A stretch of DNA of 64,000 nt from Zootoca vivipara (Eukaryota). The position numbers and the translations under genes were made by a program. The notes beneath the pieces are model-generated. The model did not search any database and was not told the DNA's origin. It saw only the letters and a program-made list of their open reading frames with translations. Of the stretch, positions 2,515 through 43,080 are shown piece by piece. The DNA lies in the NCBI RefSeq assembly GCF_963506605.1, contig NC_083277.1, positions 7,936,001 through 8,000,000 of the forward strand, given 5' to 3'. Numbering within the stretch: position 1 is the stretch's first letter; each line of letters starts with the position of its first letter.

Positions 2515-2553
2515 CTATCACACACACAAAATTGTGCGATGTAACATAAGCAG

Positions 2554-3059
2554 TCAAGTACAACACTGTGTGATTTTTTTAATGCAAGGTAAAGCAGCGA
2601 CTGCCACTGAAGCTCTTTCCACATTCGAAACATTTGTAAGGTTTCTCCCCTGCATGAATTCAGTAAGGGCACCGTTGCAACGGAAGCTCTTTCCACACTC
2701 CCAGCATTTATAAGGTTCGCCCCCTCTATGAGTTTGTTGGTGTCTAGTAAGCAGGCTGCTGCGAGTGAAGCTCTTTGCACATTCAAAGCATTTATAAGGT
2801 TTGTCCCCTGTGTGCACTCTTTGATGTGAAGTAAGAGTTGAGCGATAACCAAATCTACTTGCACACACTGTACATTCATACTTTTTCTTCTCTCTGTGAA
2901 TTTGATTTTCACCACCCAGAGACGTACCTGATTTATGTATCCCCTCTTGCCTGCTGCCTCCATCTTGAACCCTCAGCTTCCTTTGCTCCGCCTTCTCTTT
3001 GGATCCTTTTGGTGACACTTCTGATTGTTCCCCTTCTGCCAGCATCCCTTCAACATCTT
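2554..3059 (-). pseudogene. C2H2 zinc-finger exon A1 (2 intact fingers, then frameshift); paralog of A2
   Basis: Acceptor ttttattccatcag ends at 3060. Fingers YECTVCASRFGYRSTLTSHQRVH and YKCFECAKSFTRSSLLTRHQQTH. The third finger is broken by a deletion/frameshift. No KRAB exon was seen upstream. Confidence 0.75.
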
Positions 3060-3107
3060 CTGATGGAATAAAAAGGCAAACTGATAAAATGCTAAAGGAG
3101 CATCTTC

Positions 3108-3265
3108 ACCCCATCATTCAGCCTGGACCCTGAAGTCCAGCTCTGAGGGTCTTCTGGCAGTTCTCTCACTGCACAAAGTGAAGTTACAGAAAACCAAGCA
3201 GAGGGCCTTCTCGGTAGTGGCACCTGCCCTGTGGAACGCCCTCCCATCAGATGTCAAGGAAATAA
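3108..3265 (+). mobile_element. L2 LINE fragment
   Basis: KLQKTKQRAFSVVAPALWNALPSDVKEIN, same family as 250-625. Confidence 0.75.
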
Positions 3266-3867
3266 ATGAGGCCTCAGTCATACTGGACTTTAATGTGGAC
3301 CTGGATTTGTTTGTTTCTCTATTTTTTTTTAACCACTTTTGCCTAGAATGCTCTTGCAGAAACTGCTGTACTTAACAGAAACATTTTTTTTTTTGCCCTT
3401 GCAAGTGTAGCAGTTAGCAAAAGCAAAGTGCAGGAAAGAGAGGAAATCAAACAGCAGCCCTTGATGCAAGCGACTCCAAAATTTTGGTTTGGAGTGACAA
3501 ACATTCATATACAGAACGTTAAGCTTTTCTTTTGATTTGTTCTAGAGTGCCTTTGATTTTTGTATCATACTGTAGATTGCTTTGAGTTTAGTGACTAAAT
3601 GTAAATAGTAATAATAATAATACCGTAATAAACACCTGTCACTTTGGGATTAAGCATTGTATAAATCTCCTAAAGGCAGAAAATTGCAAACAGTACAAAG
3701 GAGGCCTTTTGTTTTTGGTCCCCCATGCGTAGTTGGAAGTGCATATAAATGCTCCCCACCCCTGTTCCCCCTGTCAGCGATTGCACATCAATTGAATGCA
3801 CCTAAGATGGTCACTGCTTGTCCCATGTCCCACGGACCATGTTTTACTCTGAACTATATTATAAGGA

Positions 3868-4988: not shown

Positions 4989-5340
4989 CATTTAAGGATG
5001 ATGCATTCAAGTCTCCCGCTTCCCCACCCAGGAGATGAAGACCTTTCCCCGTCGCCTCTTAGTTGGCCCCAGGAGGGACGTGGCTCCATCCCTTTTGTGA
5101 GCTCTTCCTCCCGTCGTGCCCCTCCCTCTTGCCCCCCAATTCCGCCCCTGGATTGGCCGACTCCCCCCAGTTACCCGCCTCCAGGGAGGACAGCCGCCGC
5201 CACGCCCAGCATCTCCCCGGGAAGTTGAACAGAAAGCGGAAGCTCCTCCTCTCTCGCCAGTCTTTCCTTCCGCTCTAGGAATCTAAGCTCTGTCGCCTCT
5301 GTTAACCGCTTCGGAGCCGCGCGGCAGGAGTCTCTGGAGG
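4989..5340 (-). promoter_or_regulatory. GC/CpG-rich putative promoter/first exon of ZNF A1; paralog of 14050-14370
   Basis: CpG-rich with GC box ccgccc and ETS-like gcggaag. Minus-strand donor G|gtaagt at 4988. Clearly similar to 14050-14370. Confidence 0.55.
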
Positions 5341-5726
5341 AGAGGAAGGAGAGGCGCCCGGCTGGTCTCTAGCTCTGAAGCAGGAGGGGGAAGCCCTGCA
5401 GGATCACCCCAGGGTAGCATCCTACCCTCCCGCAGGTGCTCCAAGCAGAATCCGAGTTCAAGAGCAGCTTTATCCTCACCTTTAGAATTATATTTATTTA
5501 TATCCCGCCTTTCCCCAAGACCTAGAGTCAAGGCGGCTTACAAAGGGATAGCCGTCGAATATAAATTCTAAAAGGCAAGCGGCATTAAGAGGGGAGGAAC
5601 TGCAAACGTTTCAAAGATCCTGGTTGAAATCAGAATTAGAAAAAAATTAAAAGATGCACTTTTTTGTGAAATCAGCTGAGAAGAGAGGTCCAGCGGCTGT
5701 AAAAAGATGTGTTCTTTTATTATTAT

Positions 5727-6469: not shown

Positions 6470-8350
6470 GCTAAGAAAATCCCCTTCATGGACCACTGCC
6501 TTGTCGTGGCGAAGGGGCTTAAATAACTTAGAGAAGTTATGTTTTGACCAAACGTGATCCACCTGGAGAAGGAATTGGCAAGCCACTCCAGTATCCCTGC
6601 CAAGAAAACTCTATGGACAAAGACAACAGGCATATAAAAGTTATGACGCTGGAAGATGAGCCCCTCAGGTCGGAAGGCGTCCAACATGCTACTGAGGAAG
6701 AGCGGAGGACAAGTACAAGTAGATTCAGAGCTGATGAAGCGGCTGGGCCAAAGCCGAAAGGTCGCTCAGTTGCGGATATGCCTGGAAGCGAAAGGAAAGT
6801 CCGATGCTGTAAAGAAAAATATTGCATAGGAACCTGGAATGTAAGAACCATGAACCCTGGTAAGCTGGATGTGGTGAAAAATGAGAAAGTAGGAAAAACC
6901 ACAAATAGAAATAGAAGGGGAAGAAATGGAGGTAGTGATTTTACTTTCTTGGGCTCGTTGATCACTGCAGATGGTGACAGCAGTCACGAAATTAAAAGAC
7001 GCCTGCTTCTTGGGAGAAAAGTAATGACAAACCTAGACAGCATCTTAAAAAGCAGAGACATCACCTTGCCTACAAAGGTCCGTATAGTTAAAGCTATGGT
7101 TTTCCCAGTAGTGATGTATGGAAGTGAGAGTTGGACCATAAAGAAGGCTGATCGCCGAAGAATTGATGCTTTTGAATTATGGTGCTGGAGGAGACTCTTG
7201 AGAGTCCCATGGACTGCAAGAAGATCAAACCTATCCATTCTTCAGGAAATCAGCCCTGAGTGCTCACTGGAAGGACAGATCGTGAAGCTGAGGCTCCAAT
7301 ACTTTGGCCACCTCATGAGAAGAGAAGACTCCCTGGAAAAGACCCTGATGTTGGGAAAGATTGAGGGCACTAGGAGAAGGGGACGACAGAGGATGAGATG
7401 GTTGGACAGTGTTCTCGAAGCTACGGACATGAGTTTGACCAAACTGCGGGAGGCAGTGCAAGACAGGAGTGCCTGGCGTGCTATGGTCCATGGGGTCACG
7501 AAGAGTCGGACACGACTAAACGACTAAACAACAACAACAAAAGGAAAAACCACTGGGCCAGTAAGATACAATCTAAATCAAATCCCTTATGAATACACAG
7601 TGGAAGTGAGGAACAGGTTTAAGGATTTAGATTTGGTGGACAGAATGCCTGAAGAACTATGGATGGAGGCTCGTAACATTATACAGGAGGCAGCAACGAA
7701 AACCATCCCAAGGAAAAGGAAATGCAAGAAAGCAAAATGGCTGTCCAACGAGGCCTTACAAATAGCGGAGGAGAGGAGGCAAGCAAAATGCAAGGGAGAT
7801 AGGGAAAGATACAGGAAACTGAATGCAGATTTCCAAAAAATAGCAAGGAGAGACAAGAGGGTCTTCTTAAATGAGCAATGCAAAGAAATAGAGGAAAACA
7901 ATAGAATGGGGAAAACCAGAGATCTGTTCAAGAAAATTGGAGATATGAAAGGAACATTTCGTACAAAGATTACCATAATAAAGGACAAAAGTGGTAAGGA
8001 CCTAACAGAAGCAGAAGACATCAAGAAGAGGTGGCAAGAATACACAGAGGAATTATACCAGAAAGATATGGAGGTCTCGTACACCTCAGGTAGTGTGGTT
8101 GCTGACCTTGAGCCAGACATCTTGGAGAGTGAAGTCAAATGGGCCTTAGAAAGCATTGCTAATAACAAGGCCAGTGGAAGTGATGGTATTCCAGCTGAAC
8201 TATTTAAAATTTTAAAAGATGATGCTGTTAAGGTGCTACACCCAATATGCCAGCAAGCTTGGAAAACTCAGCAATGGCCAGAGGACTTGAGAAGATCAGT
8301 CCCATCACCTCCTGGCAAATAGAAGGGGAAGAAATGGAGGCAGTAAGAGA
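6470..8350 (+). mobile_element. BovB (RTE) LINE composite: internally deleted copy containing a 3'-end segment at 6903-7541
   Basis: 5' motif ggaccactgccttgtcgtggcgaagggg; endonuclease start IGTWNVRTMN; linker/RT segment (ORF 7600-8322); C-terminus ..VHGVTKSRTRLND + (CAA)n. Direct repeat aggaaaaaccac at 6891-6902 and 7542-7553. Confidence 0.92.
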
Positions 8351-8605
8351 GTAAAATACAGCATCTTTTATTTAAAAAAACCAGTATCAGCCTATATCAC
8401 ACACACGCACACAAAAGTTTTTATTTAGATTTTGGGGCAGCAACAGCAAATCTCATAACTTGGTGTCACAAATTTCTCAAACCAGACAATAAATATGTGA
8501 CTTTCAGCTGATCATCCGCATCAGGTATATTACATAACAAATCAAGGATAAACTTGGTTCAGAAAAGATGCTGTTCTGAAAGAATTTTTTAGTGTCCCTC
8601 TAAAT

Positions 8606-10078
8606 CAGGGGTGTCAAACTCAAATTCATCGGGTGCCGCATCAGCAGTTTGGTCACCCTCAAAGGGCTGGTTGTGTCTGTAGGACTATGTGTCCACTCTT
8701 TATTATCATAAATTATTGTCACTGCATTCAATTATTACTTTTTGTAATAATGTAAGCTCATTCCCGCCCCCACGCGGATCACATTCCTGCGTCGTGGCGC
8801 GTGTGTGGGAGGGGATGTAAACGAGGGAAATTTGAACAAAAGGTGGGGATCAACGGCTTCCGGGGGGGGGGGGCTCAACTAAACCTTCGGCAGGAAGGAG
8901 AAAGCCACTGCTGGGATTAAAAACCTGCAGATGGAAAGAGGGCTTCCCTCTCCCGCCCTGCGCACACCCAAACCCCGCTAGGCAGGATGCCACACGCTGC
9001 AACCCACCCCATGCTTTGGAGAGGGGCAGGAACATGCGGTGCAGCACCAACTCCCTGCTTTGCTTTTGCATCCTCCCTCCTCAGCGCCAGAGTCCCTTCC
9101 CCTCGCGCTGAGGGAGGGCAGCGGATTTCCTGAGGAGGAAGGCGGCGGCAGCCCCAGCGGACGTGCATCTTCGCCTCAGAGCTGCTCTTCCCCCCACCCG
9201 CGCTGTTGTCGTCTTCGCCGCCGCCTCTCCCTACCGGGACTGCAGGCAGAGGAGGCTTGAAAACCTCCCCCCCCAAAAAAAATTCCCCTCCCACCTACTC
9301 AAACCGCGAGGCGACTCCATCTGGAGCCCTACATCACGAGGGGCTGAGAGGAGGCGGCGACAGAGCGGGAAGAGCAGGAACCCGTGCCGTCGTTGCCGCC
9401 TCCCTCCCGGCCGCCCCCCAGGGAGCAGCTCCACCGGAACTGAGAAGCCAAAGGGCGGCTCGGGGGTGGGGGGCAGAGCAAAAGCCAGGCACCCTCCCGA
9501 GTGTCTATGAGGAGAAAACGGGGGAAGAGGGAAGAGAAACCCGGCTCCATCAAGAGAGCGACTGTTGCGCTTCGCCTACTTCCCCCTCAGGCTCACTCCG
9601 CGTCCCTTTCGCCCGCTCGCTCGCCCACCTCCCGGATGCAGCCGAGTAGAGAAAGGGAAGCGGCGGGCGGCGGCTCCCCAGTGCCGCCTCACTCGCTCTC
9701 GGAGACAACAGCAAAGCCTGCAAAAAAAAAATCCAGCGCTGCTCCGTCCCGGCACCAACTTTGCCGGCAGCGCCTGTAGGGCTTTCCTACCTCCTCGGCG
9801 GGCTTCCTCCTCCTCCTCCTGCATCTCACTTCCCCGTCTGGCCGCTGTGCCACCGCCTCCCTCAGCCTCATTCGAAATTGAAATTCCCTGGCCAAGGCAA
9901 TCAGCGCGGCTCCACCGCCCCGGCCTCCGCCTGCAGCCCCGCCCCCGGTTTTGACCCTCGGCCTATCGCAGGCTCCAGAACTACTGTCAGCGGTTATTGT
10001 CGGCGGCGGCTACGCAGGCCACATGACGAGGTCTGGCGGGCCGGATTAGGCCCCTGGGCCTTGTGTTTGACACCCGTG
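8606..10078. mobile_element. Non-autonomous hAT (Charlie-like) element, 1473 bp, with CpG-rich interior
   Basis: TIRs caggggtgtcaaac / gtttgacacccgtg; perfect 8-bp TSD ctctaaat at 8598-8605 and 10079-10086; no transposase ORF. Confidence 0.85.
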
Positions 10079-10269
10079 CTCTAAATATTCTGAGCATATA
10101 GTCTGAAAACAAGTCATAAATGCTTGACTAAATGAACATATTGGTAAATCAGAGAGAAAATCCTCAAGTTCATGTCTTATTTTAATTAAATACCAATGTG
10201 GGGCAGTGTTTGAAATTAGCCAGGCGCCAGACACATTTTGCACCTGGCTACTGGCGACTTATCACTAGA

Positions 10270-10502
<233 letters not shown>

Positions 10503-11542
10503 TTATAAGGATTCTCCCATGTGAATTCTATGATGCACGTTAAGAGAGTAGCTGCGAGTGAAGCTCTTTCCACACTCCATGCATTTATAAGGTTTCTCTC
10601 CTGTATGAGTTATCTGATGTCTAGTAAGGTGGCTTCTGCAGCTGAAGCTATTTCCACACTCCATGCATTTATAAGGTCTGTCCCCTGTGTGAATTCTCTT
10701 ATGTGCATGAACGGTGCTCTGGGAACTGAAGCTTTTTCCACATTCCAAACATTGATACGGTTTCTCCCCTGTATGAGTTCTTTGATGCACATTACGGGCG
10801 GCACTCTGACTGAAGCTCTTTCCACACTCCATGCATTTAAATGGTTTTTCCCCCGTGTGAATTCTTTGATGTTTAGTAAGGCTACTAGGGTCACATAAAC
10901 TCTTTCCACATTCAGAGCATTTATAAGGAGTCTCCCCTGTGTGAATTATATGATGCAAGTTAAGGGAGTGGCTGAACTTGAAGCTCATTCCACACTCAAA
11001 GCACTTATATGGCTTCTTTCCTGTGTGAATTATATGATGCATGTTAAGGGAGTTGCTGCAATTGAAGCTCTTTCCACACTCAAAGCACTTATGTGTCTTC
11101 TCCCCTGTGTGAATTCTATGATGCACATTAAGGTAGTAGCTGCTACTGAAACTTTTTCCACACTCCATGCATTTATAAGGTTTCTCCCTTGTATGAGTTA
11201 TCTGATGTCTAGTAAGGTGGCTTCTACAACTGAAGCTCTTTCCACACTCCATGCATTCATAAGGTTCTTCACCTGAGTGTAGTCTTTGATGTGCAGTAAG
11301 AGTTGAGCGTCTACAGAATCTCTTTCCGCACGTAGTACATTCATGTTTTTCCCCCACTCTGTGAATTTGATTTTCATCTACTTGAGAAGCACTGTGTTTA
11401 TCCCTTGGCTTCACTGTTTCTCTCCCCTCTTGTTTGTTGGCTCCATCTTGAATCTCCAATTTCCTTTCCTTCTCTTGTTCCTCGGCTCTTTCTGGCCAGA
11501 CTTCTGATGGTTCCTCCTCATCCAGGATCCCCCAAACATCTC
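10503..11542 (-). CDS. KRAB-ZNF gene A2, last exon, 10 C2H2 fingers
   Basis: Acceptor tttttattccatcag|GA, phase 1 and in frame with the KRAB exon. Ten CxxC..HxxxH fingers with TGEKPY-type linkers. The stop arises from a deletion inside the array. Confidence 0.85.
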
Positions 11543-12212
11543 CTGATGGAATAAAAATTAAAAAATAAAGGTTGATGCAGCTGTTTCTTTTTCAAAACTT
11601 AAGGGCTGGCACTATGTCAAAGGCGTTTTATATAAAAAAATATGGTGTTATACCTTGTTTTAATAAAATACCACCATTTAATCAATGGTTATTCATATCA
11701 GAAAAGTTCTGCTGAGCAGTCCTTAAGATTAACCAAGTCCGAGCCATAAATAACACAAATTACACCAGCAGACGATCAACATCAACAGAGCCAGCCTGCC
11801 TGCCTGCCTATGGGCCTGTGTGAGGCAGCTGCCTCAGGTGTCACTCCCAAAGGGGTGTCACTGCTCAGCTTTGCTGCTGGTCTCCCCGGCCTCCAGGGGC
11901 AAAGCTGGCAGCAAAGCTCTGTGGGTCCCCTCCCCTCCCGCCAGGTCCAGAAAAGAATCTTCCCCAAGAGGGCAGACATTCCACGACTCAGCTTTGTCAG
12001 GATAATACAGTATCTTAACTCAGAGCAGCTTGAAATGTCTAGATCTGCAGAGCTTGTTGAAAAACCAAAAGGAATAATAACAATAATAGCATTTATTTTA
12101 TTTATATCCTGCCCATCTGGCTGGGTTTCCCAAGCCACTCTGGGTGGTTTATAGCATATATAAAAATTCAACCAAGCATCAAACATTAAGAAACAGAATA
12201 CAATATCCTATA

Positions 12213-14029: not shown

Positions 14030-14420
14030 CCAGCGAGCAGCGTCGCTTCGGCCTCCCGCTTCCCCTCTCAGGAGAAGACGACATTTCCCTGTAACCTCTT
14101 AGTTCCCCCCAGGAGGGACGTGGCTCCATTCCTTTTGCGCCTCTTTCTACCGGCGTGACCCTCCCTCTCGCCCCCCAATTCCGCCCCTTGATCTGCCGAC
14201 TCCCCCCAGTTACCCGCCTCCAGTGAGGACAGCCGCCGGCAGGCCCAGCATCTCCCCGGGGAAACGGAACAGGAAGCGGAAGCTCCTCCTTTCCCGCCTG
14301 TCTTCCGTTCCGCTCTAGGAACGGCAGCCCCGTCGCTGCTGTTAACCGTTTCGGAGCCTCTTGGTTGCTCCGGGCAGAGAGCGAGCAGAGGCTCCCGTTT
14401 GTTCTCTTGGACTCCGAAGC
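14030..14420 (-). promoter_or_regulatory. CpG-rich putative promoter of A2
   Basis: High CpG, tandem ETS-like aggaagcggaag and a GC box. Lies upstream of the KRAB exon on the minus strand; paralogous to 5010-5330. Confidence 0.55.
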
Positions 14421-14503
14421 AACAAAAGGGCAAAAATATTGTTTAGAAAGAAATTAAACTTCGTATTCCAAAAAAACACATCGCCTATTTTTTATGTGTT
14501 GAG

Positions 14504-42375: not shown

Positions 42376-43080
42376 TGGCATTCCCTACAGGGAATTGGGA
42401 AGAGGGAAGTTGTCTGGAAGTGAATGACATCAATAAAATACTGTTTGCATTGTGGGGGGGGGGGGAGGAGGAAAGCATCATTCAAGCCCTCAGTCTGGCT
42501 TGGAGGTCTATAGCTGATATCCACAGTAAGTTCACTGTTGTTTCCTACGGTATTCCTACAAGTTGAACCCATATGCTCTCAATCCACTTTCCATACTCCA
42601 AGCGTACACATCCTTTAAATAGAATGCTACTCCTTCTCCCTTCCGTTTTGATAAATTCCTTATGAACAGGTTGTTGATGGCATCTGTCTGTCTCGGGAGA
42701 CAATGGAAGAGTGTGCCTTCAGGGGTGAAGTCAACCCATTGGAGAGTTACAGCATCCACTGTGGCTTTGGAGACTGAAATGGGCAAGACATGTTCTGTTG
42801 CAGCTGGGGCGGATGAAGGAGTCCGGTTGTGCTGCTACAGATGCACCATGGCATTTTTTTACCTGTGCTCTTCACAACAAGTCAATCCTCCTCTGGTCAC
42901 TGCTGTGAAGTGACAGGTTGGAGTCCTCAATTTCTACATTCCAGTCTTGAGTCCTATCCCACTAGGTTCCAGTAATGCCTGTTAGGTCACATTTGCCACC
43001 CTGTATTAAGAGCTCACGTTTTAAAGAAAGCATTTAACAATATTTGTATGCCATTGAATATTTTTAAAAAATCTAAGCTG

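Follow-up and report, generated by a model that had tools for sequence, protein, structure and literature searches.

Plant Pack-MULEs are elements of the MULE superfamily with terminal inverted repeats (TIRs) that capture GC-rich 5′ fragments of genes; they have long TIRs and a target-site duplication (TSD) of 9–10 bp. Helitrons are not known to have TIRs or a TSD. In animals, the capture of host DNA by TIR elements has been described as mostly single-copy and independent of transposition, and the survey of 100 genomes by Tan et al. 2021 reports 370 animal Pack-TIRs, four of them multicopy (PMC8277862). One of the published examples, Pack-hAT-N8_XT, carries a piece of the CAPSL 5′ UTR in three copies, with a length of 291 bp (PMC8277862). 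Bat Helitrons, for example HelibatN3 with NUBPL, carry promoters and first exons and reach up to a thousand copies (Thomas et al. 2014, PMC4224331). In Anolis, hobo_AC and the non-autonomous families number tens to hundreds of copies each; the same work gives YARNG as the start of hAT TIRs and describes hAT-HT families with a NTCTAGAN-like TSD that has a central TA (Novick et al. 2011, PMC3014272). For maize, an epigenetic conflict that follows capture has been proposed by Muyle et al. (10.1101/777037).

The element described here, from the lizard Zootoca vivipara, is very probably a young hAT element without transposase, whose interior matches a single-copy CpG island upstream of EPB41L2 and which, moved as a unit, now occupies about 300 sites. 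Like Pack-hAT-N8_XT, it has hAT ends around a host 5′ fragment that was re-mobilised after capture, with its own TSDs and far from the parent, whereas its ~300 copies, its 1.25-kb cargo and the several subfamilies built on one pair of ends set it apart from that element; the copy number is about 100 times that of the published multicopy Pack-TIR example (PMC8277862). Bat Helitrons are closest in scale, since they likewise carry promoter, 5′ UTR, first exon and part of intron 1 at high copy and share the bias towards the 5′ ends of genes, but they move by a rolling circle, while the lizard element is a cut-and-paste element with TIRs and 8-bp TSDs (PMC4224331). The Anolis hobo families also combine common ends with differing middles from genomic DNA and show recombination between elements. 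However, hobo_AC has a TAGGCTTG-type TIR and another TSD, its filler is described as old TE fragments, and the main text of Novick et al. does not mention CpG and is not known to give a gene donor (PMC3014272). In a literature search neither this family nor any Pack-hAT of lacertids came up; the family may be catalogued in Repbase, in Dfam or in the supplements of PMC8277862, all outside that search. What is new here is a Pack-type hAT family of a lacertid that has reached high copy number and has captured serially. At least three different CpG islands of the host were taken up between one pair of hAT ends, and one of the resulting hybrids reached about 300 copies; cut-and-paste transposons thus repeatedly pick up and spread likely gene switches. 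Such families would also mask real promoters as repeats during annotation.

The window, that is, the whole stretch of DNA analysed, comprises 64,000 nt of the forward strand (NC_083277.1:7,936,001–8,000,000), and bare positions below count from its first letter; its sole run of N is at 625–785. The element is 1,473 bp long (8606–10078). As the original prediction had it, the element has TIRs, described there as Charlie-like, and a perfect 8-bp TSD: the TSD, CTCTAAAT, is identical at 8/8 positions on the left (8598–8605, + strand) and on the right (10079–10086, + strand), and the 14-bp TIRs, CAGGGGTGTCAAAC on the left and CACGGGTGTCAAAC on the right (read inward), are identical at 13/14. The predicted CpG-rich, non-coding interior without transposase was likewise found. 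From 8760 to 10015 the GC content is 0.64 with 94 CpGs and a CpG o/e of 0.74, compared with 0.46 and 0.40 for the whole window, and none of the nine long stop-free frames of the element (0/9) has a Pfam match at E≤0.01. The cargo was first placed at 8760–10040; its host-derived part ends at 9991, and 9992–10078 is an end of the element itself. In three paralogous ZNF 3′ flanks (C2:8.337, 8.371 and 8.373 Mb; four alignments) the empty site is present as one copy of CTCTAAAT without the CpG island. Chance can be excluded as the origin of the TIR/TSD structure because 27 of the 30 aligned window-type copies have a perfect 8-bp TSD of their own and because of these empty paralogous sites.

The 8-bp TSD, a hallmark of hAT elements, is seen in the window copy, in the copies of its subfamily, in a wider family sample and at the empty paralogous sites. 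The left TIR begins CAGGG, in agreement with YARNG, and the right one begins CACGG, which is off by one base in nearly all copies. A central TA in the TSD, characteristic of the Charlie/Buster group, is present in the family sample, with T at position 4 in 77/80 and A at position 5 in 77/80. From the TIR and TSD pattern, the element is presumably of the Charlie type. With a 14-bp TIR and an 8-bp TSD it is not a Pack-MULE, and the possession of TIRs and a TSD sets it apart from Helitrons. No autonomous element with these ends was found in the 1.5-kb flanks of 43 loci with hAT domains (13 with PF14291 and 30 of 74 with PF05699). One locus considered as a partner end, L237, proved to be a MITE beside an unrelated hAT fragment.

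A genome search with the element gave 655 candidates, 40 of which were scored; 39 of these 40 are full length, the window copy among them, and the others are 95–99% identical to it. Since only 40 candidates were scored in each DNA search, closer donors could hide behind the copies. The 20-base junction between the left end and the cargo has 298 exact matches in the genome (control 0), and the copies differ by about 1% from the subfamily consensus. The window-type subfamily is therefore a young non-autonomous hAT with about 300 near-identical copies. The decay of CpGs was followed in 12 window-type copies, picked by the left end only and compared with the consensus: 162 of 2,605 CpG sites have changed (149 by transition), 6.5 times the rate at the remaining sites (141 of 14,639). 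The window copy fits this pattern (13/224 CpG sites and 9/1,248 other sites). Of the two explanations first offered for the retained CpGs, recent insertion fits the young copies, while germline hypomethylation does not fit a CpG decay that is 6.5 times faster; the CpGs survive through the youth of the copies. It appears from this decay that the window-type copies are methylated, and they would be mostly silent. The family constitutes a natural, dated experiment on whether a CpG island stays unmethylated when moved, and here the answer is, on average, no. The same experiment bears on whether promoter cargo aids spread and on whether a donor gene bears a cost from being copied.

The left end of the element (8606–8756, + strand) consists of the 14-bp TIR and AT-rich subterminal DNA common to the sister subfamilies. 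Its first 21 bases have 1,680 exact matches in the genome (control 0), and it differs by a mean of 1.2% from 61 left ends of other subfamilies. The left end has an AATAAA on the minus strand at element position 94. The right end (9992–10078, + strand) is GC-rich, and its last 65 bp, including the 14-bp TIR, are common to all subfamilies. The family was sampled through 80 of the first 100 listed left-end matches, all on C1, with one known window-subfamily copy skipped and the last 19 left out. A TSD with at most one mismatch closes the element in 76/80, one has the TIR only, and three have no right end within 3.4 kb. The predicted copies with the same ends and different interiors are present among them: 56/80 are of a main type, 12/80 of the window type and 12/80 of other types, the last made up of eight elements that represent seven interiors (L043, L046 with L113, L054, L059, L060, L114 and L142) and four main-type elements with inserts or without a right end. 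CpGs are scarcest in the left third of each of the seven complete other interiors (7/7), of the window type and of two main-type copies; these cases are not all independent.

Several features of these subfamilies may be recorded. In every subfamily the CpG content is high beside the right end and lowest beside the AT-rich left end. The main type (L053, L067) is about 1.65 kb long, with purine-rich simple repeats followed by a GC-rich imperfect inverted duplication of 300 bp. The interiors of L054 and L114 are largely GC-rich tandem units (~48 bp in L114) amplified within the element. The L060-type copies L075, L076 and L077 have a second element inside the captured island, about 830 bp long and flanked by an 8-bp TSD of its own, which is carried along with the host element.

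The donor of the window type was recognised from RNA. RNA reads and one RNA-type contig that match the element have letters at 9823, 9828 and 9848 that are absent from every consensus, and a motif made from these RNA-only letters has one match in the genome, C3:56,662,954. At this locus the three blocks of the element that match it are contiguous over 486 bp. No family TIR with up to 3 mismatches was found in the 3 kb around it, its left flank is single copy (1/1 candidate), and its right flank has, besides itself, four old relatives at 75–82% identity (5/5 candidates scored). Coding exons with a FERM_N match lie 27 kb beyond the island on the same strand, and the first of them is 100% identical to a Zootoca vivipara protein named band 4.1-like protein 2. 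The match of the 1,845-nt contig is confined to 9878–9791 of the element on the minus strand and stops at a GT splice donor; donor-type reads from two raw runs have their first mates on the + strand. From its position, its strand and this one contig end, the C3 island is likely the EPB41L2 promoter with a non-coding first exon and the start of intron 1. Compared with the window, the contig has 5 differences and the assembly donor 6, and one letter is peculiar to the contig, which indicates that the donor locus is polymorphic.

The existence of this donor bears on the simplest alternative, that the element arose by ordinary internal deletion from an autonomous hAT whose own promoter was GC-rich, and contains no host DNA. 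A uniform high-copy consensus lacking any single-copy donor had been named beforehand as the observation that would speak against capture, and the interior is indeed uniform over about 300 copies. However, a unique TIR-free donor with a single-copy flank exists, unrelated interiors lie between the same ends and no transposase remnant is present; with the donor match, this derivation is extremely improbable and already refuted. The predicted single-copy donor at the 5′ end of a gene is matched by the C3 island upstream of EPB41L2, which is TIR-free and a likely 5′ end of that gene.

Within the element, the donor sequence runs on the minus strand and is interrupted twice. Donor block 1 (8758–8787), which would belong to intron 1, is identical at 30/30 positions to G000:C3:56662639-56662668. 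It is followed by segment A (8788–9398), missing in the present-day donor, and by donor block 2 (9399–9487; 86% identity), which adjoins block 1 in the donor. Segment B (9488–9611), also missing in the present-day donor, separates block 2 from donor block 3 (9612–9991; identity 85% for the window copy and 88% for the consensus), which would comprise the EPB41L2 promoter, the non-coding first exon and the start of intron 1. The captured 5′ splice site (9785–9791, minus strand) reads G/GTAAGA in the donor and G/GTAGGA in the element. The capture junctions show a microhomology of 3 bp on the right (AGC) and 0–1 bp on the left. In total, the present-day donor covers about 500 of the 1,255 interior bases (~40%) at 85–88% identity. 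The consensus differs from the donor by 6% at non-CpG sites, and CpGs kept on one side only number 5 and 6, so that for the window subfamily the direction of capture cannot be read from CpG decay.

The origin of segments A and B is illuminated by the four old relatives (L104–L107, at G000:C16:3.42 Mb, C16:1.96 Mb, C14:4.69 Mb and C1:134.07 Mb), which match the donor in parts of the island and over about 140 bp of its right flank. They differ by about 13% from the element consensus at non-CpG sites. Three of the four have segment B between blocks 2 and 3, and the fourth has part of it; L106 holds about 310 bp of segment A (about 9072–9382, at 71%) in donor order, and the copies with segment B or part of A run on into donor flank that the element lacks. 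The old relatives seem to represent an earlier, separate capture of the same EPB41L2 island by another family. Read in this way, segment B, which is likely ancestral donor DNA, and part of segment A belonged to the donor, and about 435 bp of the interior beyond the donor match recurs in old copies of the same locus. The notion that A and B are nested captures from a second donor was dropped, as B and part of A are present in these copies. The original prediction of a patchy cargo gathered from the 5′ ends of unrelated genes holds in that the cargo is likely host 5′ DNA, but most of it traces to one locus, with about 280 bp excepted.

These ~280 bp of segment A (~8788–9071) match only family copies among the 266 loci compared. 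They leave some room, at a rather low probability, for a true mosaic in which segment A, or this part of it, came from a second locus or an intermediate element instead of the ancestral EPB41L2 island. Mosaics do occur in the family: the sister elements L152 and L153 join L046-type with L142-type cargo, and cargo is common to elements with other TIRs. Such an origin is opposed by segment B and the 310 bp of segment A standing in donor order in old copies that reach the donor flank, and by a motif search with the start of segment A and another upstream base, a weak negative that gave only 2 matches, both chance 14-mers. With the old copy L106 as query, the only matches were L106 itself and young copies (14/39 others checked). 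A further candidate locus, C2:104.58 Mb, reached from the loose end of one DNA contig, has only a 37-bp low-complexity match.

The same old relatives could be taken in the opposite sense, with the C3 island as an exapted piece of the older transposon family (L104–L107) from which the young element took transposon DNA. The four are dispersed, they share parts of the island together with the ~140 bp of right flank, and three of the four have an A7-GCACTG-type end, which differs from the terminal motif of the young element. However, the 215-bp block with the exon and splice site is missing in 4/4; the similarity ends at a GTACCGG microhomology, beyond which the donor continues as unique CpG-rich DNA without the end of the old relatives; and the old relatives are CpG-depleted while the donor is not, which fits an earlier separate capture. 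The reversed direction is accordingly very unlikely, and capture from the EPB41L2 island is the preferred reading.

Under capture from this island, the 6% gap between consensus and donor calls for comment. At sites where element and donor differ, the old copies agree with the element in 19 cases and with the donor in 5, while 15 are uninformative (junction columns excluded; binomial p 0.007); under a stricter rule the counts are 12 and 2 (p 0.013) and unfiltered they are 24 and 9, all from an alignment of the old copies that is short and gappy. The donor therefore changed more than the element, which preserves an older version of a likely host promoter. A capture on a divergent allele or in another lacertid lineage, followed by introgression or horizontal transfer, would also explain the gap. 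It is favoured by the ends differing by only ~1.2% from the sister subfamilies while the cargo differs by 6% from the donor, by a consensus that lost almost no CpG and by the polymorphism of the donor locus. The lopsided changes, in that same short and gappy alignment, are unlike a plain lineage split, and this course of events is unlikely.

A more far-reaching reading, in which silenced promoter copies led the EPB41L2 island to escape from cross-silencing and a lacertid hAT network selectively takes and trades CpG islands, is quite improbable when taken as a whole. Its parts, improbable to the same degree jointly, are that, since capture, the EPB41L2 island lost 734 bp of the DNA in common with the element and evolved at about four times the rate of the element, and that the network includes several TIR types with the CpG-rich side of the cargo always at the same end. 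The evidence for donor escape is a single locus with 24 sites, and the same pattern would follow if promoters evolve fast at recombination hotspots or if the source allele was divergent. If true, the epigenetic conflict proposed for maize (10.1101/777037) would have a vertebrate counterpart.

Capture from the host is not confined to the window type. Donor searches covered six interiors (the window type, L060, L043, L142, L059 and L114), and the predicted lizard transposon family that captures and mobilises host CpG-island fragments is borne out by two further TIR-free donors besides the one upstream of EPB41L2, both belonging to interiors that differ from that of the window type. For the L060 type 7 loci were seen, the donor included; its cargo corresponds at 88–96% identity to a TIR-free island of 2 kb (C2:50.31 Mb), with an exon-intron-like boundary in the donor, a non-CpG difference of 1.3–1.9%, and CpGs kept only in the donor at 17–28 sites as against 2 only in the element. 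In the L043 type, 760 bp match a TIR-free island at C1:76.225 Mb at 90–91% with a 3.3% non-CpG difference; CpGs kept only in the donor number 5, those only in the element 0. Exon scans at these two donors gave no gene name. The loci checked for L142, L059 and L114 were family members or elements with other TIRs, and none was a TIR-free donor. The captured splice donors of the window type and the L060 type are oriented alike, pointing inward from the right end. The three donors, all CpG islands, suggest a capture bias towards such islands, possibly through open germ-line chromatin or through a need for CpG-rich DNA beside the right end.

Several loci considered as donors turned out to be elements: L152–L155 and L258–L266 are family members, L172 is an element with other TIRs in a DENND11 intron, and L086:5904-7515 is an element with other TIRs and its own TSD. 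The last two have CAG(G/T)GGCGTAGC-type ends; L086:5904-7515 lies in an EPB41L2 intron (G000:C3) and the L172 element at 2540-3510 of that locus (G000:C10). These elements share CpG-rich cargo with L046/L113/L152/L153 and with L059. Cargo common to elements with different ends implies that cargo passes between hAT families of different TIR type.

By the definition of Tan et al. 2021, a Pack-TIR is a single TIR element whose ends enclose 100–5,000 bp of host DNA, with a parent outside any TIR element or duplicated block and, when multicopy, with distinct TSDs after capture. The lizard element has such DNA between its ends, its parent has no family TIR in 3 kb and a single-copy left flank, and its copies have distinct TSDs. 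It would nevertheless be removed by the filters of the survey, which ask for a unique top hit, at least 90% identity and 80–120% of the length, as compared with 85–88% and 486 vs 1,255 bp here (PMC8277862). The element works like a multicopy Pack-TIR though it lies outside that operational set. Insertion of the hAT type, amplification after capture and repeated capture on one pair of ends are shown. As to mechanism, a family member would have lost its middle, with host DNA copied in during repair by gap repair or template switch; the hybrid would then have been mobilised in trans by a Charlie-type transposase, and the donor would afterwards have lost 610 and 124 bp still retained in the element. 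The capture occurred once, ahead of the burst, and not at the window site.

The insertion in the window lies, as predicted, between two ZNF paralogs, whose zinc-finger exons (~2.6–3.1 kb and 10.3–11.6 kb) align in the same orientation. The CpG islands at 5013–5382 and 14053–14421 are paralogous and 82% alike, and are likely the promoters of the two minus-strand ZNF genes that flank the element. The window copy was inserted about 190 bp beyond the end of a ZNF coding exon. Its captured putative promoter faces the next ZNF paralog, about 3.2 kb upstream of the island of that gene and on the same strand, and, going by this arrangement of the sequence, the copy could serve as an alternative first exon for it. 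It is most likely inert because its CpG decay is like that of other copies and its splice site is weaker than that of the donor; the RNA reads on the interior are thin and not attributable to the window copy, and thus have no bearing on its expression. The ZNF frame at 10506–11591 stops at 10506 while finger-like repeats run on to ~10270, and this paralog may be truncated. Just to the left of the insertion, 7500–8300 holds what we take to be a LINE fragment of reverse-transcriptase type, RTE/BovB-like. Pieces of 6936–7541 recur in the window at 43079, 62607, 35103 and 24428 with 92–97% identity.
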